A program made the position numbers and the translations under genes. This document shows, piece by piece, positions 35,559 to 48,448 of a stretch of 64,000 nt of DNA. Position 1 is the first letter of the stretch; each line of letters opens with the position of its first letter. The stretch is taken from the NCBI GenBank assembly GCA_963805625.1, contig CAWDVE010000010.1:1152001-1216000 (forward strand). The letters run 5' to 3'. The notes under the pieces were generated by a model. It ran no database searches, was not told where the DNA came from, and worked only from the letters and a program-made list of their open reading frames with translations. Source of the stretch: an uncultured Candidatus Rokubacteria bacterium (GTDB lineage: Bacteria > Methylomirabilota > Methylomirabilia > Rokubacteriales > DASRDR01).

Positions 35559-36737
35559 CTAGGTCAGGACATCCTCGAGGACGCGGCCGTCGACGCCGGC
35601 CGCGTCGATCCCCGTCAGGCGGCAGAGCGTCGGCATGAGGTCGATGGTGCGCCCGGCCCGGATCTCGGCGCCGGCCCGCACACCCGGCCCCGTCACCAGC
35701 ATCGGGATTCGCTGCTCGTGCTTGGAGCCGTGCGAGCGCAGTCCCGTCTCGGGGCGGTGCGCGGGCTCGTCCTCCCAGACGCCGAGGGCGACGTCCCGGG
35801 CCGCCCAGCAGATCAGGTCGCCGACGCGCTCGGGTGGAAGGTGATCGCGCCGCGCCTCGGCGTTCGGGACCACCTCATCGATGCCGGCGGTCCGCTCCAG
35901 GATGGCGTGCGCCTCGCGCGCCTTGCCCGGGTCTTCGAAGTAGAGGTAGAGCGCCCCGCCGAGATCCCGGTGGTGTGCGTAGAGCCCATCCCGGATGAGA
36001 GGCACGCCGTGGGTCGTGATGCCGGCCTCCGCCAGCACCCGCACCGGCGAGACGGAACGGAGCTTGGCGTTCATTCCGTGATCCGCCGTGAGGACGACGA
36101 CCGTCTCGGCAGGGTCGTACACGTCGAGGAGCCGCCCGAGCGCCTCGTCGCTGGCCTCGAGGTAGCGCTGCATGGCGGGCTCATCGGGCGCCAGCATGTG
36201 CTGGGGGTAGTCCGTCGTGGCCACGTAGAGGAAGGCCGGGCGCTCCCGGAGCGCGACCTCGCGGGCCATCCGGAACACCCAGAGATTGATGTCGAGGGAG
36301 AAGATCTCGGGCGGGGGCCCGGCCACCGCTCGGTGGGTCTCCGGGTGCGTCTTCATATCGACGCAAACGTCCAGGCCCCGACGGAGGAGCTTCGTCAGCT
36401 TCTCCTTCGCCGTGACGAGCGCCGTGGACCAGCCGGCTGCCTTGAAGTGCTCGAACACGAGAGGCTCCTGCACAAACGAGACCTGCTCCATGAAGACGTC
36501 CATCCGCGTAGCGCGATCGTAGTAGAAGTTCGTCGACAGACCGTGGCGCGCCGGGTAGGTGCCCGTGAGCAGCGAGATGTGGTTCACGTTCGTGAGGCTG
36601 GGGAGCACCCCGCGACCGTCGAGGGTCGAGGCGCCGGCCTTCATGAGCCCGGCCAGTCGCGGCATCCGGGCCGGCTGGACGTAGCCCGGGTCGAATCCGT
36701 CGAGGAGGAACATGAGGACGTGCTTCGGTCGCGTCAT
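35559..36737 (-). CDS. phnA: Phosphonoacetate hydrolase-like (alkaline phosphatase superfamily)
   Basis: LDG, PSLTNVN (catalytic Thr), TTDYPQH, TADHGM, LRSHG; adjacent to phnW. Confidence 0.78.
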   Translation of the reverse strand: MTRPKHVLMFLLDGFDPGYVQPARMPRLAGLMKAGASTLDGRGVLPSLTNVNHISLLTGTYPARHGLSTNFYYDRATRMDVFMEQVSFVQEPLVFEHFKAAGWSTALVTAKEKLTKLLRRGLDVCVDMKTHPETHRAVAGPPPEIFSLDINLWVFRMAREVALRERPAFLYVATTDYPQHMLAPDEPAMQRYLEASDEALGRLLDVYDPAETVVVLTADHGMNAKLRSVSPVRVLAEAGITTHGVPLIRDGLYAHHRDLGGALYLYFEDPGKAREAHAILERTAGIDEVVPNAEARRDHLPPERVGDLICWAARDVALGVWEDEPAHRPETGLRSHGSKHEQRIPMLVTGPGVRAGAEIRAGRTIDLMPTLCRLTGIDAAGVDGRVLEDVLT

Positions 36738-36753
36738 CAGTCAGCCTCCGGGG

Positions 36754-37863
36754 TCACCGTCCGACCCCCACCGCCAGCTCTGAAAGGCTGGCCCGGAACG
36801 CCTCGACCACCCCCTCCATGTCCCGGGGGGTGAGCGTCCCCATGTTGGACACGCGAAACGCGTACGTGCGGATGTCCCCCTGGCCGGCGTAGATGATGTA
36901 CCCACGCCGCTTCATCGCGTCGTGGAGCCGGTCGTAGGCCAGTCCTGGCAGGAGCCGGAACGTCGTGAGGATGCTGGACCGCGCCGCCTCGGGGACCAGG
37001 ATCTCGAAGCCAAGCGCCGCCATGCCGCGCCGCAGCACGCGGGCGTTCTCCGCGTACCGGGCGATGCGGCCGGCCACTCCCTCGGCGTCGAGCTCGACGA
37101 GGGCCTGCCGCATCGCGTGGAGGACCTGGACCGCAGGGGTGAAGGGCGTGTTGTCCCGTTCCTGGCTCGTGTAGTGGCCGTGGAGATCCAGATAGACGCC
37201 GCGCGGTGGCTGCCCGGCCAGCGCGTCCAGCGCCGTTCGGCGACCGAGGACGAAGGCGATTCCCGGAACCCCCTGCAGACACTTGTTGGCGCTGGCCATC
37301 ACGAAGTCGACGCCGTCGGCGTCAACGTCGAGCCGCTCGCCGAAGAGCGAGCTCATGGCGTCGATCAGGACCCGGCGCCCCGCCCGCGCGGCCACCCGCG
37401 CGACGTCCATCACCGGGTTCAGGAGGCCCGTCGTGGTCTCGTGGTGGACGACCGCCACGTGGCTCAGCTCGGGACGCGCCCGGAGCGCGGCCTCGACGTC
37501 GGCCGGGGGCACGGGGGTGGTGACGTCGTACGCGAGCACCTCGGCCGCGATCCCGTGGACCCGCGCGATCCGGGCCAGGCGGTCCCCGTAGACGCCATTG
37601 TTCACGATCAGGACCGCGCGGTCCCTCGGCACCACCGAGCTGACGGCCGCCTCCACGGCGGCGGTCCCCGACCCGCTGAACAGCACCGCGGCGAAGCGCT
37701 CGTCGCAACCGGCCAGCCGGACGAGCCGAGCCCGGCACTCCCGCATCATCTCGAAGAACTCCGGCTCTCGGTGGCAGAGGTCTGGCATCACCAGGGCCTC
37801 CCGCACCGATCGGCTGGTGTTGGCAGGGCCGGGGTTCAGCAGGATCCACTCGCGCTCGCGCAT
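36754..37863 (-). CDS. phnW: 2-aminoethylphosphonate--pyruvate transaminase
   Basis: LLNPGP, GSGT, HHETTTG, DAMSS, SANKC, FTP, IYAGQG. Confidence 0.88.
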   Translation of the reverse strand: MREREWILLNPGPANTSRSVREALVMPDLCHREPEFFEMMRECRARLVRLAGCDERFAAVLFSGSGTAAVEAAVSSVVPRDRAVLIVNNGVYGDRLARIARVHGIAAEVLAYDVTTPVPPADVEAALRARPELSHVAVVHHETTTGLLNPVMDVARVAARAGRRVLIDAMSSLFGERLDVDADGVDFVMASANKCLQGVPGIAFVLGRRTALDALAGQPPRGVYLDLHGHYTSQERDNTPFTPAVQVLHAMRQALVELDAEGVAGRIARYAENARVLRRGMAALGFEILVPEAARSSILTTFRLLPGLAYDRLHDAMKRRGYIIYAGQGDIRTYAFRVSNMGTLTPRDMEGVVEAFRASLSELAVGVGR

Positions 37864-38983: not shown

Positions 38984-39054
38984 CCGCCATCCAACGCGCC
39001 AGCGCCCACGTCCCTGTCCTCGGCCGCGCGGTCCGCGCGACCGGCCAGGCGGTC

Positions 39055-40140
39055 GTGACGGGAGCGCCCGAACGCAACGGCAGGCCGCGGTCAGCGCCTC
39101 GGATCGGCTTCGCCTTCAACAAGAAACCGGACGACGGGGCCCCACCGGCCATCGCGCCCCCCAGGAACCGGAGTCTCGGGGACCCCGCGGATCTCTACGC
39201 CGAGTGGGACGACGAGGTCACGATCGCGGCAATCGAGGCGGCACTGGCGGAGACCGGCGAGGTCACGCGGCTGGAGGCCACGGAGGACTTCCCGCTCCGG
39301 CTTCGGGAGTCGAAGCCCGACATCATCTTCAATGTGGCGGAAGGGCTCTGGGGGCCGAACCGCGAGGCCCACGTGCCAGCCCTCTGCGAGTTCTGGGGCG
39401 TGCCCTACACGGGAAGCGATCCCCTCACCCTGGCGATCTGTCTGGACAAGGGCCGCGCCAAGGAGATCCTTGCTTACCACGGCATTCCGACCGCGGAGTT
39501 CACCGTCGCCCCCGGAAGGGCTCCGCTCGACGGGACCCCGCGGCTGCCCGTGGTCGTGAAACCGATCCACGAGGGCTCCAGCAAGGGGATCACCCAGGCG
39601 TCGCTCTGCCGGACTCGGGCCGAGGTGGGGCGCGCCGTCGGCCTGGTGTGGCGGCGTTACCGCCAGCCGGCGCTCGTCGAGCGGTGGCTGCCCGGCCGCG
39701 AGTTCACCTGCGCGATACTCGGGAACGGCCCGAGCGCCCGCGTCCTGCCGCTGGTCGAGGTCGATTTCGACGCGCTGCCTCGCGGGGCGGCGCGCCTCTA
39801 CTCGTACGAAGCCAAGTGGTTGTGGGACCGACCAGAGCGGCCGCTCGCCATCTTCCAGTGCCCCGCCTCGCTCCCGCGCGGGCTCGCGCGGCAGATTGAG
39901 CAGACGGTGCTGGCCGCCTATCGCGTCTTGCGCTGCCGGGACTGGGCCCGCATCGACGTTCGCTGCGACGCCCGAGGGGTGCCACACATCCTCGAGGTGA
40001 ACCCTCTCCCGGGGGTGCTTCCGGACCCGGCCATGAACTCCTGTTTCCCCAAGGCTGCGCGGGCTGCCGGCATGGACTACGGGTCCATGATCCGGGCCGT
40101 CCTGCGGGCCGGAGCCGTGCGCCATGGCATTGTCGTCTAG
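39055..40140 (+). CDS. D-Ala-D-Ala ligase-like ATP-grasp ligase 1
   Basis: FNVAEG, PYTGSD...CLDK, VKP..EGSSKGI, GREFT, RID, LEVNPLPG. Confidence 0.85.
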   Translation: MTGAPERNGRPRSAPRIGFAFNKKPDDGAPPAIAPPRNRSLGDPADLYAEWDDEVTIAAIEAALAETGEVTRLEATEDFPLRLRESKPDIIFNVAEGLWGPNREAHVPALCEFWGVPYTGSDPLTLAICLDKGRAKEILAYHGIPTAEFTVAPGRAPLDGTPRLPVVVKPIHEGSSKGITQASLCRTRAEVGRAVGLVWRRYRQPALVERWLPGREFTCAILGNGPSARVLPLVEVDFDALPRGAARLYSYEAKWLWDRPERPLAIFQCPASLPRGLARQIEQTVLAAYRVLRCRDWARIDVRCDARGVPHILEVNPLPGVLPDPAMNSCFPKAARAAGMDYGSMIRAVLRAGAVRHGIVV

Positions 40141-41272
40141 GCCTCGGCTGGGAGTGCGGGGGCGGCTCCGCGTGGCGGTCATCACCGATGCCCTGTCGGA
40201 GGCGACGGCCCAGGCCCTCGGCACGCCGTCGGCCCCCGGCAACCCCGGGCCGGTGCTGGCCGCGCTGCGGGCGCTCGGCTACGACCCGGTGCTGGTCGAG
40301 TTCAACGGCAACCCCTCGGAGTGGCTGGCTGAGCTGGCAACCGGGCGCTTCCAGCTGGTGTTCAACCTGTGCGAGGGCCTGAGCAACCAGGCGGCCGGCG
40401 AGCCCGTCGCCGCGGCTCTCGTCGAGCTCCTCGGGATTCCCCTGACCGGCGCCTCGTCCGACATGCTCGCGCTGTGTCTCCGGAAGGACCGGGCGAACGC
40501 CGTGCTCTGCGCCCACGGGGTCCCGGTGCCGGAGTGGATCCTGGTGCGGCCGGGCGTCGCCCGGGCACGGTGGCGCCGGTTCCCGGCCATCGTCAAGCCG
40601 GCCGGCGAGGACGGGTCGTTCGGGATCGGCGCCGACTGCATAGTAGGCGATCGGGCCGCGCTCGAGGCCGTCGTGGCGCGCGGATGCCAGCAGTGGGGCC
40701 GCATGCTCGTCCAGCGCTTCGTCGGAGGCCGGGAGTTCAACCTGGCGATCGTCGGTGGGCGGGTGCTTCCCCACGCCGAGATCGACTTCAGCCGCCTTGC
40801 TCCGGGACTGCCCGCGGTGGTGACGTACGCGGCGAAGTGGGAGCACGGCAGTCCGGCGGACCGGGGGACGGTGCCGAGGTGCCCCGCGCGCCTGCCGGCC
40901 CGACTCGCTGCCCGTCTGACCCAGCTCGCCGAGCGCGTCTGGGCCGCCGTGGACGGCACCGGATACGGCCGCATCGACGTCCGTGTCGACGGCCGGGGCA
41001 CGACGTTCGTCACGGACGTGAACCCGAATCCGGACCTCGGGGTCCGGGCGGGACTGGCGCGCCAGGCGGCCGCCGCGGGGTGGAGCTATCTCGACCTGAT
41101 CGCCCGGATCGTCGAGGACGCCCTCGCCCGTGCGCGCCGGGCAAGCGGACCCGGTCCGACTCCTCCAGCGGCGCTCGCAGACGCTCGACGCCTGATGGAG
41201 GGCATGCCCTACACCCAGCGCCTCGCGTCGGCCCTCGGCCGGCGTGAGCCAAGGGGGACGAGGCCGACGTGA
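40124..41272 (+). CDS. D-Ala-D-Ala ligase-like ATP-grasp ligase 2
   Basis: FNLCEG, VKP..EDGSFGI, GREFN, YGRID, DVNPNPD. Confidence 0.82.
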   Translation: MALSSRPRLGVRGRLRVAVITDALSEATAQALGTPSAPGNPGPVLAALRALGYDPVLVEFNGNPSEWLAELATGRFQLVFNLCEGLSNQAAGEPVAAALVELLGIPLTGASSDMLALCLRKDRANAVLCAHGVPVPEWILVRPGVARARWRRFPAIVKPAGEDGSFGIGADCIVGDRAALEAVVARGCQQWGRMLVQRFVGGREFNLAIVGGRVLPHAEIDFSRLAPGLPAVVTYAAKWEHGSPADRGTVPRCPARLPARLAARLTQLAERVWAAVDGTGYGRIDVRVDGRGTTFVTDVNPNPDLGVRAGLARQAAAAGWSYLDLIARIVEDALARARRASGPGPTPPAALADARRLMEGMPYTQRLASALGRREPRGTRPT

Positions 41273-42468
41273 CCTATTGGCAAGAGAGTCTCCGCGAGTC
41301 GGTGACCACGGTCGACGAGCTCGTCAAGCGCTTCGGGGTCGACTACATCGACCAGGAAGCCGTGCAGCGAGCGATCGACGGGTTCAACCTCCGCATCACT
41401 CCCGAGATGCTCAATCTCGTGAAGGAGCCGGGAGACGCGATCTGGCGGCAGTACGTTCCCACGGCCCAGGAGAACGAGGTGGTGGACGGGATCGTCGACT
41501 CGCTCGGCGAGGATGCCGATTCGCCGGTCCCGAACATCACCCACCGCTACCCCGACCGTGTCCTCTTCCTCGTGAGCCCGGTCTGCGCCGCCTACTGCCG
41601 CTTCTGCACGCGGCGGCGCAAGGTGGGCGATCCCGAGAAGATCCCCCTCGGCCAGTTCGACGCAGCGTTCGACTACATCCGGCAGCACACCGAGGTCCGG
41701 GACGTCAGCCTGTCTGGGGGCGACCCCCTGATGCTCTCGGATCGGCGGGTCGAGTATTTCCTTGCGAAGCTCCGGGCGATCCCCCACGTCGAGATCGTGC
41801 GCATCCACACCCGGATCCCCTCTCAGCTGCCCGAGCGCATCACGCCGGAGCTCTGCGAGACGATCAAAAAGTTTCACCCCGTGTTCGTGAACGTGCATTT
41901 CAACCATCCGGACGAGCTGACGCCGGCAACCCGGACCGCGCTCGGGATGCTCGCCGACGCCGGCTGCCCCCTGGGCAGCCAGACCGTCCTCCTGAAAGGT
42001 GTAAACGACGATCCGGTCATCATGAAGCGGCTCATGCAGGAGCTTCTCAAGTGCCGGGTCCGACCCTACTACCTCTACCAGGCGGACCTCGTCGCGGGCG
42101 GGGAGCACTTCCGGACGTCCGTCGCCAAGGGAATCGAGATCATCGAGGCGCTTCGGGGATGGACCTCGGGGCTGGCCGTCCCGCACTTCGTCATCGACGC
42201 GCCCGGTGGCGGCGGGAAGATCCCGCTCTTGCCCGAGTACGTGCAGTCGGTCACCGATCGGGAGGTTGTGCTGCGGAATTACGCCGGCAAGACGTTCCAG
42301 TACATCCTACCGAAAGCGGACGACCCGCCCCCGCTGAGGCCAGCTGTCGCCCCGGCCCGCGGAAGCTCCGCGCCAAGGCCAGGAAAGCAGAAGGGGCGAG
42401 TCGCGAGTGCGGCTCACCCCTTCCCGTTGCCGTCCCTGAAGGCTCAGAGGAATCCGGCCGGGCGCTGA
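41269..42468 (+). CDS. KamA-family radical SAM lysine 2,3-aminomutase-like enzyme
   Basis: THRYPDR, CAAYCRFC, YQADL, FVIDAPGGGGK (PLP lysine). Confidence 0.9.
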   Translation: MTYWQESLRESVTTVDELVKRFGVDYIDQEAVQRAIDGFNLRITPEMLNLVKEPGDAIWRQYVPTAQENEVVDGIVDSLGEDADSPVPNITHRYPDRVLFLVSPVCAAYCRFCTRRRKVGDPEKIPLGQFDAAFDYIRQHTEVRDVSLSGGDPLMLSDRRVEYFLAKLRAIPHVEIVRIHTRIPSQLPERITPELCETIKKFHPVFVNVHFNHPDELTPATRTALGMLADAGCPLGSQTVLLKGVNDDPVIMKRLMQELLKCRVRPYYLYQADLVAGGEHFRTSVAKGIEIIEALRGWTSGLAVPHFVIDAPGGGGKIPLLPEYVQSVTDREVVLRNYAGKTFQYILPKADDPPPLRPAVAPARGSSAPRPGKQKGRVASAAHPFPLPSLKAQRNPAGR

Positions 42469-42659
42469 CGCTCCGGCAGGGCGACCCCGCTCCGCCGGAA
42501 CTCCGCGCGGAACGCCTCGGCGTCGGGTCCCTCGAACCCTGCCATCCCCTCGCGAAGCAGGGACGCGGCTGATGCGCATCGGCTCTTTCGCAGCGACGCA
42601 GCCTGCAGCACTCCCGCGATCGCGACCACGAACCCACCAGCCAGCACGAAGTCCAGCAT
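42444..42659 (-). CDS. Small hypothetical membrane protein (~71 aa)
   Basis: GGAGG RBS before ATG; N-terminal hydrophobic helix MLDFVLAGGFVVAIAGVL. Confidence 0.55.
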   Translation of the reverse strand: MLDFVLAGGFVVAIAGVLQAASLRKSRCASAASLLREGMAGFEGPDAEAFRAEFRRSGVALPERQRPAGFL

Positions 42660-42670
42660 GTCGACCTCCC

Positions 42671-43051
42671 TCACGCGGCCTGGAGCCGTCGAGCGTGGCG
42701 CGCCACGGTGCCGAGCGGACGAACGACGGCCGGTTCCGGGGTCAGAACCAGTTCGTACCGGCCCGCGCCCGCCCGCGTCAGGGTCTCGTGGGCGATGGCC
42801 ACGATGCGGCTCACCGTCGCCGGCCGGCCGACTGGGACCTGGATCTCGACGCGCCACGGGCCTCCCAGCGGCTTGGTGACCAGCGGGGCCACGATCGGTC
42901 CCAGCTCGTCCGCGATGGCGTCGGTCAACCGCACCTGCCGGGCGACCACGGCCTCCCGGCGGTGGTCGCGCCATGCGGCGAGCCCGAGCAGTCCCAAAAT
43001 CACAAGGATCGGCGAGGACATTGTCAGGGTCGCGATCGCTACCGTCATCAT
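42671..43051 (-). CDS. Small hypothetical membrane protein (~126 aa)
   Basis: Strong GGAGGAGG RBS, N-terminal TM, compact alpha/beta C-terminal part. Confidence 0.65.
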   Translation of the reverse strand: MMTVAIATLTMSSPILVILGLLGLAAWRDHRREAVVARQVRLTDAIADELGPIVAPLVTKPLGGPWRVEIQVPVGRPATVSRIVAIAHETLTRAGAGRYELVLTPEPAVVRPLGTVARHARRLQAA

Positions 43052-43078: not shown

Positions 43079-43105
43079 AGACACCGCTCGGACGGCGGCG
43101 TGAAA
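43079..43105 (-). promoter_or_regulatory. Putative ECF-type promoter, copy 2 (TTTCACG-N11-GCGG-N-GTCT)
   Basis: Same motif and spacing as 44884-44910 upstream of the sigma gene. Confidence 0.6.
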
Positions 43106-43132: not shown

Positions 43133-43260
43133 CTACTGGGCGAGAAAGGGCTCGAGGGCGGCCAGGGTCTCGGCCGGAGCTTCCTCGGGCAGGAAGTGGC
43201 CAGAGGCCACCGGCTGACCCCGGACGTCGCGGGCCCAGTCACGCCAGATGGCGAAGTACC
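43133..43260 (-). pseudogene. C-terminal remnant of an alpha/beta hydrolase (haloacetate dehalogenase-like)
   Basis: IWRDWARDVRGQPVASGHFLPEEAPAETLAALEPFL*; no N-terminal part present. Confidence 0.65.
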
Positions 43261-43375
43261 GGCGGCCCGTGGCCCCCGACGACGGTGTGGATCTCGGCCT
43301 CGCGCGTCCGGAGCCGCTCACGGCGGAACCCCGAGAACAGCGCCTCGTCCGCCGGACCCGCGGGATCGGGCTCGC

Positions 43376-44350
43376 TCAATTGACCTCGTGGAGGGGGTGG
43401 AGGTCCGGGCGGCAGCTCGTGCAGGGGTGGAGCCCGACCGCCTCGGCTCGGCTCCGGGAGCCGAAGTAGGTCAGCAGCCCGGACCGGAGCGTCTCCATCG
43501 ACGGGCAGCTTGGGAGGCAGTACTCGCTGTCGCCGGGCGCGAGCAGGTACATTGCGCCCCGCGCCACTGCGAAGTCGTTGTGCGCCGGTACGAGGGGCAC
43601 GCCTTCGGTCGCGAGCAACTGCCGCTTCCGACCGGTCTCACCGCCCGCGTAGCCCGTCAAGAGACCCGACGCTCCCACCACCCGGTGGCACGGGATGGCG
43701 ATGGGGACCGGGTTCCACCGGAGCGCTTGCGCCACGGCCCGCACCGCCCGAGGCTGTCCCAGGTCGCTCGCCAGCCGCTTGTACGACACCACCGCGCCGT
43801 ACGGGATGCTGGCGGTGCGCTCGAGAACCTTCCGCTGGAACGGGCTCCTCGCCAGCCGGAGGTCGAGCGCCCACGGGAGCTGCTGCGCCCGCCCCTCGAT
43901 GTACGCTTGGAACTCCCGGTAGAGCTCCTCGGACTCGCCTCCGTCCTCGACCGCCTCGATCCCACGCATCCGCGCGAGACGCGAGGCCCCGAGATCGCGT
44001 CGGCCGTGGAGGTACTCCAGCAGGACGACTCCCTGCTCCGAGTGCGCCAGGAGGATCGGCCCCAGCGTCGAATCGAATACCCGGTAGGCGACGATGCGGC
44101 TCCGGAGGTCGTCGAGCCTCGCGTCGAGCCGCTCACGCGACTGCGCCACACCCTGGGCGTCCACGGCCGCCTCCCGGATCACCCCGAGCTCGCGATCGAT
44201 GGCCTGGTAGCCCGAGTGCTCGACCCGGCACGACTCGCACTTCGCGACGTGCGCGGCCACGCGGCCCTCGGTGCCGGCGTCCGCTTCGCCGATCGCCGCG
44301 GCCACGAGGTCCGCCTCGATCTCGGTGCAGCTCGCCCCCTTTCGCTTCAC
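43376..44350 (-). CDS. Fusion: zinc anti-sigma (ZAS) domain + O6-methylguanine-DNA methyltransferase + Ada-type metal-binding domain
   Basis: SC...HVAKCESC (HxxxCxxC); SY..LA..RAV.QAL..NP..I.IPCHRVV; C-terminal YCLPSCP...A...G.HPCTSCRP; GTG overlaps the sigma TGA. Confidence 0.85.
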   Translation of the reverse strand: MKRKGASCTEIEADLVAAAIGEADAGTEGRVAAHVAKCESCRVEHSGYQAIDRELGVIREAAVDAQGVAQSRERLDARLDDLRSRIVAYRVFDSTLGPILLAHSEQGVVLLEYLHGRRDLGASRLARMRGIEAVEDGGESEELYREFQAYIEGRAQQLPWALDLRLARSPFQRKVLERTASIPYGAVVSYKRLASDLGQPRAVRAVAQALRWNPVPIAIPCHRVVGASGLLTGYAGGETGRKRQLLATEGVPLVPAHNDFAVARGAMYLLAPGDSEYCLPSCPSMETLRSGLLTYFGSRSRAEAVGLHPCTSCRPDLHPLHEVN

Positions 44351-44874
44351 GACACGAGCTCCTTCCCGATCAGCTCGCGCCCCTCGAGGGCACGGCGAAC
44401 CTTCCGGAGAGCCTGAAATACGTGGGCCCGAGCGGTCTCGGCCGAGCACTCCAGGCTCCGGCCTATCGCTTCGTAGTCGAGCCCGTGGACCTTCCGCTGG
44501 AGGAAGGCCAGGCGCTGCTTGAGCGGGAGCCCGGAGACGACGTGCTCGACAGCCGCCCCGATCTCCTGCGACAGAGTGACGGTGTCCGGCCGCTCTTGGT
44601 CCGTCTCCCGCACCTCGGTCACCACCGCGGCATAGGCCAACCGGCGCCGCTTCTGCGACCGGAAGTGGTTCCGGGTGAGGTTCGTCGCGATCGCGAAGAG
44701 CCAGGCCCGGGAGTTGGCATCGGGCGGGAGCGTCCGGTGGGCGCGGAAGGCCCGCAGGAACGTCTCCTGCGCGAGGTCGTCGGCATCCTGCCGCCGCCCG
44801 GTCACCCGGAGCACATACCGGTAGATCTCTGCATGGTGGTCAGACATAAGCGCCTCGAACGTCCGATCGCCCAT
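44347..44874 (-). CDS. ECF RNA polymerase sigma factor
   Basis: DADDLAQETFLRA, RAWLFAIATN (region 2); LP..QR.AF......GLDY..IG..L.CS..TARAHV (region 4). Confidence 0.9.
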   Translation of the reverse strand: MGDRTFEALMSDHHAEIYRYVLRVTGRRQDADDLAQETFLRAFRAHRTLPPDANSRAWLFAIATNLTRNHFRSQKRRRLAYAAVVTEVRETDQERPDTVTLSQEIGAAVEHVVSGLPLKQRLAFLQRKVHGLDYEAIGRSLECSAETARAHVFQALRKVRRALEGRELIGKELVS

Positions 44875-44883
44875 CACTCCCAA

Positions 44884-44910
44884 AGACCCCGCAGCCGGGC
44901 CGCCGTGAAA
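44884..44910 (-). promoter_or_regulatory. Putative autoregulatory ECF promoter, copy 1 (TTTCACG-N11-GCGG-N-GTCT)
   Basis: -10-like GTCT ends 6-9 nt before the GTG/ATG of the sigma gene; duplicated at 43079-43105. Confidence 0.6.
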
Positions 44911-45056
44911 GGGCGCCCAGTTCGGCCCTGGCGCGCCAGCGGATGAATCGTGATTATTGTCAACGTAATAAACATGTTATCTATCATCGTCTCGGAATCA
45001 GTCTGATCTAGAGCCAACACCAGTCGAGACCCGTCCTCAAACCTCGGCGAGCCTCG

Positions 45057-47168
45057 CTACCTCGCCGGCCGCGCCTCACGCTGGGCGTGGCCGGAGAAGG
45101 TCGCCTCCGACGGATCGGCCCGAGCCACGTCCACCATCGTCGAGTGGAACGCCGGCCCCCCGCCCATGTCGGCGAGACCATCCGAGGTGAGGACGTTGAC
45201 GCCGCGTCCCCCCGGCATGAACTTGTGCCACCAGATCCCCTCGATGACTACCTGGCCCTGCAGGGTGTCGTCGGACAGGACTGCGGTAAAGAGCGCCCGT
45301 CCTCGGTCGTTGAAGACCGCGACGAGGTCTCCCCCGGCGATCCCTCGGGTGACCGCGTCGTCCGGATGGACGAGCACCGTCGGCCCACCCTGCCGCGCCC
45401 GGAGCAGGGCCGACTGGCTGAACGACGAGTTGAGGAAGAAGCGATTCGGCGGGACGTGGCAGCGAAGGGGGTAGCGTGGCCCGACGGCCGGATTGTCCCA
45501 GCTCTCCCGGAGCGGGACGTACGTGGGCAGCGGCGGCAGCCCTTGCTTGGCGAGGGTCTCGGAGTAGAACTCCACGCGACCCGAAGGCGTTGGCGCCCCG
45601 TCCGCGAAGGGCCGGAAGGGCCGCGGCACGGCGATCCGCGCCGAGTGCTCGACGCGGAGGCGTTCGTGGGTGATCCCGTCGGCGACCGCACCCGCCGCCC
45701 GGAGATGAGCGTCGATGAGCCCCGGGAGCGGCGTCTCGTAGTGGCGGTCGGGCATCCCCATGGCACGGGCCAGCTGCCCGAAGACCTCCCAGTTCGTCCG
45801 GGCTTCCTCCCGGGGAGCGATCACCGGCTCGGCCAGCTGGAGGTAGAGGTGGCCGAACGACCGGTAGACGTCCTGGTGCTCCATGCTCGTGGTCGCCGGA
45901 AGAAGGAGGTCCGCGTAGTCTGCCGTGTCCGTCTGGACCTGCTCGTGCACGACGGTGAAGAGGTCCTCGCGAGCGAGCCCCTCCAGCACGAGGCTCGAGT
46001 TCGGACAGACCGCCGCCGGGTTCGAGTTGTACACGTAGAGCGCCATGACGGGCGGGCGGAGATCCGCGTCCGTCAGGGCGCGCCCGAGCTGGACCATGTT
46101 GATCGTGCGCGGCGCGGGCGAGGGCAGGAGGTCCCGCCGCTCGAGGACCGTATCGCCGGGGCCGAATGTGCCGGAGCTCCCGAGGAGCGCCCCGCCGTGC
46201 GGGTGCGCGTAGGCGCCCGTGAGGGCGGGCAGGCACGCGATGGTCCGGCACGTCATGCCGCCGTTCTCGTGCCGCGACAGCCCGATGCCCACGCGGAGGT
46301 AGCTGGCCCGCGTCCCGCCGTATCGCCGCGCGAGGTCGACGATCGCGTCCGCGGGGAGCCCGGTGATCGCGGACACGCGCTCGGGCGGATAGGCGCGGAC
46401 ATGCTCGCGGAGCGCCTCGAAGCCGAGCGTCGCGCGCGCGATGTAGCCGTGATCGAGGAGGTCCTCCCGGATCAGGACGTGAATCAGACCGAGTGCCAGC
46501 GCCCCGTCCGTCCCCGAGCGGATCATGAGGTGCTCGTCCGCCTGTCGGGCTGTCCGGGTCCGGTAGGGATCGATGCAGACGATGTGCGCGCCGCGCACCC
46601 GCGCCTCCTTGACCAGGGTCATCAGGTTGATGTGAGTGTAGGCGGCGTTGATTCCCCAGAGGACGACCAGCTCGGCGCCCACCATCTGCTCCGAGTCGTT
46701 CCCGGCGACGACGCCGAGCGTGGCCCGCCATCCCGCATAGGCGGTCGACACGCAGATCGTCCGGTCGAGCTGACTCGCGCCGAGGGCGTGGAAGAACGGG
46801 TGACCCGCGTAGTACTGGATGCGGCCCAGTGTCCCCGCGTACGAGAACGGCAGGATTGCTTCGGGGCCCCACTGGGCGATGATCCGCGTGAACCGGTGGG
46901 CGATCTCCTCGATGGCGTCGTCCCAGGAGATGGGCTCGAACTCGGCGGTCCCCTTCGGCCCCGCGCGCCGCATCGGGCGGAGCACGCGCAGCGGGGAGTA
47001 CACGCGCTCCGCGTAGTCGTGCACCTTGCCGCAGATCACGCCCCGGGTGAACGGATGCGCCCGGTCCCCGGCGACGTCGACGATCCGGCCGGCCTCGGTC
47101 GTGACCTCGAGCGCGCAGGCGGACGGGCAGTCGTGGGGGCAGACGGAGGCGTGCGTGTGGCGCGTCAT
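45057..47168 (-). CDS. Molybdopterin (bis-MGD) oxidoreductase of unknown substrate
   Basis: CPHDCPSAC...C 4Fe-4S motif, WGIN, SNP, TDTADYADLLLPAT and C-terminal molydop-binding domain; GGAGGAG RBS. Confidence 0.88.
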   Translation of the reverse strand: MTRHTHASVCPHDCPSACALEVTTEAGRIVDVAGDRAHPFTRGVICGKVHDYAERVYSPLRVLRPMRRAGPKGTAEFEPISWDDAIEEIAHRFTRIIAQWGPEAILPFSYAGTLGRIQYYAGHPFFHALGASQLDRTICVSTAYAGWRATLGVVAGNDSEQMVGAELVVLWGINAAYTHINLMTLVKEARVRGAHIVCIDPYRTRTARQADEHLMIRSGTDGALALGLIHVLIREDLLDHGYIARATLGFEALREHVRAYPPERVSAITGLPADAIVDLARRYGGTRASYLRVGIGLSRHENGGMTCRTIACLPALTGAYAHPHGGALLGSSGTFGPGDTVLERRDLLPSPAPRTINMVQLGRALTDADLRPPVMALYVYNSNPAAVCPNSSLVLEGLAREDLFTVVHEQVQTDTADYADLLLPATTSMEHQDVYRSFGHLYLQLAEPVIAPREEARTNWEVFGQLARAMGMPDRHYETPLPGLIDAHLRAAGAVADGITHERLRVEHSARIAVPRPFRPFADGAPTPSGRVEFYSETLAKQGLPPLPTYVPLRESWDNPAVGPRYPLRCHVPPNRFFLNSSFSQSALLRARQGGPTVLVHPDDAVTRGIAGGDLVAVFNDRGRALFTAVLSDDTLQGQVVIEGIWWHKFMPGGRGVNVLTSDGLADMGGGPAFHSTMVDVARADPSEATFSGHAQREARPAR

Positions 47169-47212
47169 CACTCCTCCTCGGGTCCGCACTGTGTGCGCAT
47201 ACTATACGGGCG

Positions 47213-48125
47213 TCAGTATCGTCGCGAAGATCTTGGCCGGCCCTTGCCCGTGACCCGCGAGCCCAGGGTGGCGCGGAATCGAGACGGCGGCTTGCCCCAC
47301 TCCTGGCGGAACGCGATGGTGAAGTGGCTGTGATCCGCATATCCGAGGTCGAGCGCGAGCGCGGTCAGGTCCCGGGCCCCTTGCGCCAGGCGCTCGGCGG
47401 CCACGCGCGCGGGGATTCGGGTCACGTACCGGCGAATCGGCACGCCCACCACCCGGTGGAACGTCCGCGACAGGTGGAAGGGCGAGCGTCCGAGGGCACG
47501 CGACAGGACCTCGAGGGGCGGCGGCCCGCTGATGCTCGCCTGAAGGTGCGTCCGCGCCGTCTCGGCGAGCTCGCGGGCTCGCCGGGCTTCTCCCGGCCTC
47601 GGCGGAGAGGCCCTCCCGGCAGCCGCCGTAGGCCTCCCGCACGACCTCGTCCGCCAGTGGCCGACCAGGTCTCAACCGCCAGGGCGGGCGCGCGGCCGGT
47701 GCGGAGCGCGGCGAGGAGGTCGTACTGAGGGCGCAGCGCCCGGGCAGTGCAGAAGGTGCGGCTCGAGGGGAACGCGGCCTCCGCCCGGTCGGTGGCGCTC
47801 GGCGCATGCGCCGCCACGACGTCTCGCAGCAGCCGGGGTGAGAGCGACACCGTGGTGCAGTCGTCGCCCCCCGCAACCGGGTGGGCGACCCGATAGGGAC
47901 GGCCAGGGGCGACGAACAGCACGTAGCTCGGGTCAGGGGCGATCGCCTCGCCGTCGATGACACACCGGAATGCGTCGAACCGCACGAACACGATGCCGTG
48001 GGCGTCGAACTGCTCTCCCGGCCCGACGGGATGGCACCGACGCGGCACCGGTAGTCCGTGACGGAGATCTCCGGCGAGCTGAACAGCCGGTGCTCTTGCT
48101 GCTGGAGCTCGAGCTGGCGGCTCAC
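47213..48125 (-). pseudogene. AraC-family regulator, multiply frameshifted
   Basis: N-terminus (FSSPEISVTDYRC), cupin part (PYRVAHP...DCT) and HTH part (SPFHLSRTF; LGYADHSHF..AFR..WG..PS.FR) lie in different frames. Confidence 0.75.
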
Positions 48126-48448
48126 GGCGCCTCGTCCGGCGCCGAGCGCGTCGCATACTCGTACCCCCGCCGGAGCCAGCGGAACGCGCGCGAGAGGACC
48201 TCCGGGTCCTCGACGTCACACTCGATCCAGCCGCGGCCCGCGAACCGACGGTGCGGCCGCACCCCGGGCGTCGCCAGCGCGCGGGTCTGATCCGAGCGCG
48301 ACAGCCGCACCCAGAGGTCGTTGTCACGCGGCCGGATGGGATAGCAGGCGAACAGCTGCTCGCCGACGAAGTAGCCGAACCGCCCGAACATCGGTGTGAT
48401 CCGGACGCCGAACCAGCCGCTCAGGACCCGGTTCAGCTCCGCCGACAC
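48122..48448 (-). CDS. TfoX-N / YjbR-like small protein
   Basis: PMFG..GYFV...LFA and GW...W...YE motifs; RBS before GTG. Confidence 0.55.
   Translation of the reverse strand: MSAELNRVLSGWFGVRITPMFGRFGYFVGEQLFACYPIRPRDNDLWVRLSRSDQTRALATPGVRPHRRFAGRGWIECDVEDPEVLSRAFRWLRRGYEYATRSAPDEAP

Follow-up and report, generated by a model that had tools for sequence, protein, structure and literature searches.

The window analysed here, a stretch of 64,000 nucleotides from an uncultured Candidatus Rokubacteria bacterium (genome G000), carries an ECF sigma factor gene (44347..44874, minus strand; 175 aa) directly followed by an ORF of 324 aa (43376..44350, minus strand) whose product combines three modules in one chain: a putative zinc anti-sigma (ZAS) domain, an O6-alkylguanine-DNA alkyltransferase (Ogt) and an Ada-like Cys4 zinc domain. 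In the interpretation that we favour, and to which we give about an even chance, this fusion protein would be the cognate anti-sigma factor, and alkylation of Cys221 in its Ogt module would likely destabilise it, freeing sigma for its own operon and a small detoxification regulon.

The GTG start codon of the fusion ORF and the TGA stop codon of the sigma gene overlap by 4 nt (GTGA), as had been noticed in an earlier, sequence-only reading of this DNA. The sigma gene adjoins the fusion gene in 36 of 36 fusion loci, with the 4-nt overlap in 35 of them (these loci include the window itself, two duplicate pairs and L101 of the unpublished genome G029). A predicted autoregulated ECF promoter (44885..44910, minus strand; TTTCAC as -35 and GGTCT as -10) is situated 11 nt 5' of the sigma start and scores 28.9 bits in a motif scan of G000; its first base, 44910, is the end coordinate that the sequence-only reading had given to the region. 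The transcript is likely leaderless or near-leaderless. Upstream of sigma and on the same strand lies a molybdopterin oxidoreductase gene (45057-47189), for which no link to the operon was found. The stretch at 44945-45015, between this gene and the sigma promoter, appears by eye to be AT-rich with short inverted repeats and is a possible site for a separate regulator. Beyond the oxidoreductase gene, 47202-48327 (minus strand) resembles by eye a frameshifted AraC-type regulator spread across two frames; a Pfam scan of both ORFs gave no match.

Downstream of the fusion gene, a remnant of a fluoroacetate-dehalogenase-like (haloacetate-dehalogenase-like) alpha/beta hydrolase gene is present (43133..43379, minus strand), from which 668 bp are missing at 43255/43254 in comparison with the intact gene in L082. 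Such a gene is located 3' of the fusion in 10 of the 14 loci picked for inspection; it is intact in close relatives of the window, and L085 carries a different remnant. A second copy of the promoter motif (43080..43105, minus strand; 29.9 bits in the G000 scan) precedes the gene for a 126-aa protein with a hydrophobic N-terminus (42671..43051, minus strand), a predicted regulon member that matched no Pfam or NCBIfam family and, in the Atlas, only unnamed Methylomirabilota clusters. The 72-aa ORF after it (42444..42662, minus strand), which likewise matched no Pfam or NCBIfam family, is likely co-transcribed with the 126-aa gene; a similar ORF is found at the same place in L002. The convergent region (39000-42468, plus strand) contains a lysine-2,3-aminomutase-like radical SAM gene (Pfam), preceded by two ORFs resembling by eye D-Ala-D-Ala-ligase-type ATP-grasp enzymes. 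At 35559-37863 (minus strand), there is an aminotransferase and hydrolase pair which, judged by eye, we take to resemble aminoethylphosphonate catabolism genes.

The three-module architecture proposed in the sequence-only reading is confirmed by Pfam, by motifs and by invariant residues, the latter taken from an alignment of 46 fusion homologues (58-87% identity) selected among the 120 matches listed. ZAS domains are defined by the motif C/H-x(23-26)-HxxxCxxC, and the N-terminal part of the fusion (residues 1-85, 44096..44350, minus strand) carries it as C8-x25-H34-x3-C38-x2-C41; all four residues are invariant in 46/46 homologues, and zinc binding is predicted. The central part (residues 86-251, 43598..44095, minus strand) is an Ogt module with a two-domain fold, in which the Tyr/Arg finger, Asn hinge, PCHR and Glu are all present (Y190, R204, N213, PCHR 220-223, Y234 and E249, each invariant in 46/46). 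Its active-site sequence is intact, as had been claimed, and methyl transfer activity is predicted. In the C-terminal part (residues 252-324, 43376..43597, minus strand), C278, C282, C310 and C313, again invariant in 46/46, align to C38/C42/C69/C72 of E. coli N-Ada (1adn, E 6e-5), i.e. to the four Ada zinc ligands with which this motif had been equated. The reversed domain order and the lack of an AraC domain were also rightly recognised: no AraC match was obtained by Pfam, and the protein ends 11 residues past C313. Among the domain models that the sequence-only reading had named, DNA_binding_1 (residues 170-251; 103.5 bits, cut-off 27) and Ada_Zn_binding (residues 277-316; 26.2 bits, cut-off 23) exceed their cut-offs, whereas zf-HC2 (residues 8-42) stays at 17.9 bits, below its cut-off of 22.2. 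Methyltransf_1N (residues 88-158) reaches 17.1 bits with a cut-off of 21, and NCBIfam TIGR03988 and TIGR02451 (soluble zinc anti-sigma) match weakly, far under their cut-offs. The AlphaFold model of the fusion (mean pLDDT 90.3) has four N-terminal helices, and Foldseek returned alkyltransferases and, weakly, N-Ada for it. A chance ORF or mis-assembly is ruled out by conservation in homologues and genomes.

Structure prediction of sigma together with the full-length fusion resulted in a complex scoring 0.76, versus 0.01 for the best control. This agrees with the sigma/anti-sigma pairing put forward in the sequence-only reading, and the model supports the fusion as the cognate anti-sigma binding its sigma. 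Of 157 solved complexes, 116 reached the pass mark, as did 2 of 215 mismatched pairs, a calibration which holds only roughly for the alignments used; moreover, ECF-ZAS is a textbook pair whose relatives include solved structures, and the pass may stem from likeness. Runs share at least 93% of their contacts, and the pLDDT of the partner is at least 86. The predicted interface comprises fusion residues 13-20, 43-59, 63-88 and 132-139: helix 3 (43-59) is placed on sigma4 and helix 4 (63-88) on sigma2, and the Ogt N-terminal domain contacts sigma through residues 132-139. The Ogt active-site domain (170-251) and the Ada-like domain are not named in this interface; unnamed residues count as uncertain, not as excluded.

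The sigma factor is short and contains sigma2 and sigma4 only (Pfam Sigma70_r2 and r4_2; TIGR02937 above cut-off), which makes it an ECF sigma factor. In quick trees against 24-27 other ECFs, it branches with Ogt-linked actinobacterial ECFs with an SH-aLRT of 93-94, a support below 95; three long rows were dropped from one of the trees. This kinship is drawn from the trees because HMM score alone did not single out the Ogt-linked actinobacterial sigma, which was not the top match in 2 of 3 genomes. When the sigma alignment was run against 61 Actinomycetota genomes, the threshold (E 1e-28) was too strict and no match was obtained; in 4 of 5 Actinomycetes genomes checked, no ogt had a sigma gene closer than 1.5 kb. 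The sigma of L321 (G160), next to an Ogt-Ada_Zn gene, falls outside the clade of the window sigma. The actinobacterial sigma-ogt pairs have a similar promoter and Ogt at +1, and no zinc motif; their Ogt keeps just a short helix corresponding to about residues 73-85 of the fusion, the end of helix 4.

Full-length matches to the fusion (spanning query residues ≤7 to ≥319) were found in 112 of 201 Methylomirabilota genomes, 106 of them in the order (n=144), and partial matches in 12 further Methylomirabilota genomes; the unpublished genomes G029, G058 and G101 are within the 112, and G152 and G047 within the 201. Named relatives belong to Rokubacteria/Methylomirabilota. A full module is also present on a 4.7-kb contig labelled Vulcanimicrobiota (L003) and in an unclassified bacterium (L006); the sigmas of both nest among Methylomirabilota ones, which points to transfer or mis-binning. 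A motif count in the best 150 representatives at 50% identity (sequences without genomic context, a few of them fragments or frameshifted) gave 25 ZAS-Ogt, 13 ZAS-Ogt-Ada_Zn, 21 Ogt-Ada_Zn and 66 Ogt-only proteins; across the family, Ogt is the constant partner and the Ada-like tail optional. For the Ogt-Ada_Zn fusions of L315-L317 (G056, G041, G046), no sigma match was found within the fetched flanks. Some Rokubacteria possess a second, ECF122-like module consisting of DUF1706/DinB, ECF sigma and helix-Ogt genes (L312, G024:C144:1-3500; L313, G002:C1:18500-22500; L314). In L312 and L313, it is preceded by Oxygenase-NA-like and alkB-family genes, and the position of the sigma-ogt module behind alkB-family and DUF1706/DinB genes suggests an independent tie to alkylation repair. 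In L312 and L314, the module is followed by a small Ada_Zn gene of its own, which has Gly where N-Ada has C38. A literature search, which reached few subscription papers, retrieved no paper on the ZAS-Ogt fusion or on its regulon.

In 36/36 loci, the motif TTTCACR-N12-CGGKGTY is found upstream of the sigma gene, with 8-13 nt between its end and the sigma start, and a second copy is located at most 1.45 kb downstream of the fusion in 34/36. From this position and from the likeness to the ECF122 motif, we infer that the window sigma reads it. The genome G000 contains five sites above 21 bits at the right spacing and never more than one when any of seven wrong spacings is used; these five precede the sigma gene, the 126-aa gene, a DinB-family gene, a DUF2652 gene and a small hydrophobic ORF. 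The exact motif, whose pattern was derived from fusion loci, occurs at 2-7 sites in each of 10/10 fusion genomes counted, five of which were in the training set, and the reversed pattern at none; the counts in five genomes without the full-length fusion are 0, 0, 0, 1 and 1. Over the order, it is present in 44 of 46 genomes (reversed control, 0/46); the genomes behind all motif and conservation counts are related and not independent. The unpublished G029 and G058 are included in this order-wide search and in the Ada-domain survey mentioned below. In L156 (G049:C9), the motif precedes a DUF1706 gene; this genome is 87% complete and has no full-length fusion match. The actinobacterial promoter pattern yielded 9 sites versus 5 in the control in 5 genomes and no regulon beyond the sigma's own promoter.

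Among the matches listed, there are 78 non-operon sites, i.e. 20 from the ten fusion genomes and 60 from the order-wide search minus two sigma promoters at contig breaks (left out of the 60 are G029, G058, three sites of G150, sites already counted and 19 further matches; the target-gene starts come from automatic selection and are incorrect in a few cases). Genes of the DinB superfamily (DUF1706, DinB_2, MDMPI_N) follow 33 of these sites; the other targets are DUF2652 (13), standalone ogt (3), SRPBCC (3), arginase-family (2) and MFS genes (2), and the remaining ones small or single genes. Neither alkA nor alkB lies behind any of the 78. Three genomes other than G000 have a standalone ogt behind a site, and the standalone ogt of G000 itself has a weaker, 15.6-bit site, a score reached by 0/1500 random 210-nt windows. 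Three other DinB-like genes of G000 have no site within 200 nt, and an AlkB search of G000 with one query gave no match. The DUF2652 target at L159:1097-1744 (G000:C14) shows by eye a nucleotide-cyclase-like motif and a CxCxxC cluster; in one Atlas cluster, 13% of members have Guanylate_cyc. The accessible text of PMC10693628 states that DinB-superfamily genes are induced by genotoxic stress, that the superfamily includes thiol S-transferases, and that the colibactin-resistance protein ClbS belongs to DUF1706. A PDB search with a DUF1706-type target returned a weak YfiT match (E 0.006) and no ClbS match, and ClbS-like activity is not claimed for it. The adaptive-response circuit envisaged in the sequence-only reading thus survives as an autoregulated ECF-type promoter with a link to alkylation defence (the standalone ogt sites and the sigma-ogt module in an alkB operon), but not as an alkA/alkB regulon, the predicted targets being mostly DinB-family and DUF2652 genes. 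As only 3 of the 78 sites precede ogt and none alkA or alkB, a response to general electrophile stress would account for the regulon just as well.

In the resting state, helices 3 and 4 of the fusion would clamp sigma4 and sigma2, respectively; in the model, helix 4 is placed beside the Ogt N-terminal domain, which would provide a path from the enzyme to sigma. Alkylation of Cys221 would destabilise the fusion and free sigma, which would then turn to its own operon and to the predicted DinB-superfamily, DUF2652 and some standalone ogt genes. New, unalkylated fusion produced from the operon would rebind sigma and end the response. Alkylation would accordingly be the signal and Cys221 the sensing residue. 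We favour Cys221 over the ZAS thiols, C278, DNA binding or the absence of regulation because the Ada-like tail is optional and lacks the Thr/Arg residues, Ogt is constant, and human MGMT offers a precedent: its alkylation destabilises the protein and marks it for degradation (accessible text of PMC10814553).

It is unlikely, though less so than the further alternatives, that the fusion is an anti-sigma in which electrophiles or oxidants attack the ZAS zinc-thiolates C8, C38 and C41 and Ogt is fused cargo. Such an attack is the signal in RsrA-type switches. The invariant ZAS ligands and the fact that ZAS makes up most of the predicted interface would suit this explanation, as would the dehalogenase-like gene after the fusion and a regulon dominated by a superfamily that includes thiol S-transferases (PMC10693628, in its accessible parts). 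However, the related actinobacterial sigmas lack a zinc motif while retaining a similar promoter and Ogt at +1, so in this lineage the Ogt link is more constant than the zinc site.

We regard as improbable the trigger suggested in the sequence-only reading, Ada-type Cys methylation of the C-terminal domain, in which methylation of C278, by methylphosphotriesters or directly by small alkylators, would release sigma. The residues T34, R39 and R71 of N-Ada contact DNA; their equivalents are present in 24/24 true Ada domains of the fetched loci and in 0/36 fusions, and the mean net charge is +6.0 in the former versus +0.4 in the latter. Furthermore, the domain is missing from the 25 ZAS-Ogt representatives and unnamed in the interface, and in the related module (L312/L314) the stand-alone Ada_Zn gene has Gly instead of cysteine at the C38 position. 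In favour of C278, its four aligned cysteines are invariant, for which reason the Ada-like domain evidently has some function, some distant three-domain relatives among the best 150 representatives retain a Thr-Thr motif, no full-length Ada-type domain was found in G000, and the adaptive signal of E. coli is methylation of N-Ada C38 (accessible text of PMC10814553). In the order, 9 of 31 genomes have full-length Ada-type domains, which rules out the fusion as a strict Ada replacement. The genome G000 also contains a 47-aa Ada_Zn-like ORF that stands alone, with neither AraC nor Ogt (L111:1504-1647, G000:C19).

Slightly less probable still is that the fusion is drawn away from sigma when Ogt binds alkylated DNA but transfers no methyl group: invariance extends to the residues of the HTH and the Arg/Tyr finger, and in the model the Ogt N-terminal domain is in contact with sigma, but Cys221 is invariant too, and transfer would therefore follow binding. 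We find it hardest to believe that the fusion is a repair enzyme only, in an autoregulated operon and with an N-terminal domain that does not regulate sigma or does so regardless of damage, because, although zf-HC2 is below cut-off in the window copy and the accessible parts of PMC7826278 list no anti-sigma for ECF122 and ECF203 and propose TetR control for the latter, the full C-x25-H-x3-C-x2-C motif is kept in 46/46 homologues, zf-HC2 exceeds its cut-off in 11/30 scanned representatives, the predicted complex passes its controls, and the coupling to sigma is preserved in 36/36 loci.

Beyond release of sigma by Cys221 alkylation, we tentatively propose, at somewhat less than even confidence, that the suicide alkyltransferase is itself the sensor, counting spent repair enzyme in a second design of adaptive response; that this switch is near-core among Rokubacteriales, where it activates DinB/DUF1706 (ClbS-family) proteins as a defence against naturally occurring alkylating genotoxins; and that the helix of the ECF122 partner represents the same switch's anti-sigma in its minimal form. 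The last point, if true, would solve the regulation of ECF122: the fusion has a full zinc anti-sigma on an ECF122-type Ogt partner and indicates which helix likely plays this part there. With four cysteine mutants and a 26-bp promoter, the idea of an alkylation-sensing sigma switch can be put to the test. Such a switch would connect several as yet uncharacterised proteins of the DinB family and of DUF2652 with defence against alkylators and, being compact and orthogonal, could be a biosensor part.

Among known systems, the fusion resembles RsrA/ChrR in its C/H-x-HxxxCxxC motif, in a four-helix domain predicted on sigma2 and sigma4 and in the coupling of its gene to sigma, and differs from them in that its C-terminal module is a DNA alkyltransferase. 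With E. coli Ada (PMC10814553, in its accessible parts; PDB 1adn, 1u8b, 1sfe), it shares a Cys4 zinc domain and an alkyltransferase in one chain and the tie of a repair protein to transcription. However, the fusion has the reversed order, no AraC HTH and no T34/R39/R71 equivalents; its output would be sigma release, and its predicted targets are not alkA/alkB/aidB. For the actinobacterial ECF203, the accessible parts of PMC7826278 describe Ogt at +1 and Ada_Zn_binding in the neighbourhood, no identified anti-sigma, a proposed TetR regulation and a promoter that is not conserved. In the window, Ogt and Ada_Zn are both found in the single +1 protein, which in contrast carries a ZAS domain, and no TetR or MFS neighbours, a trait of ECF203, were seen beside the pair in the ORF list. 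The closest system is ECF122, described in the accessible parts of Casas-Pastor et al. 2021 (PMC7826278) as actinobacterial, with an O6-methylguanine methyltransferase at +1, no anti-sigma and the promoter CTCAC / CGTCTAC, and listed under unknown mechanism, without an anti-sigma, in those of a 2022 review (PMC8999054). As in ECF122, Ogt is at +1 in 36/36 fusion loci; the promoter is similar but distinct (TTTCAC / KGTY in the window, with a spacer 1 nt shorter), and actinobacterial sigma-ogt pairs with the ECF122 promoter branch as sister to the window sigma in the quick trees. In contrast to ECF122, which these sources confine to Actinobacteria, the fusion relatives come from Rokubacteria/Methylomirabilota, the +1 protein has a full ZAS domain and an Ada-like tail, and the motif marks a multi-gene regulon. 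Neighbourhoods of ECF and Ogt (and Ada_Zn) are thus already catalogued as ECF122 and ECF203; to these, our sequence-based analysis adds an anti-sigma domain recognisable in the +1 protein and a predicted set of regulon genes.
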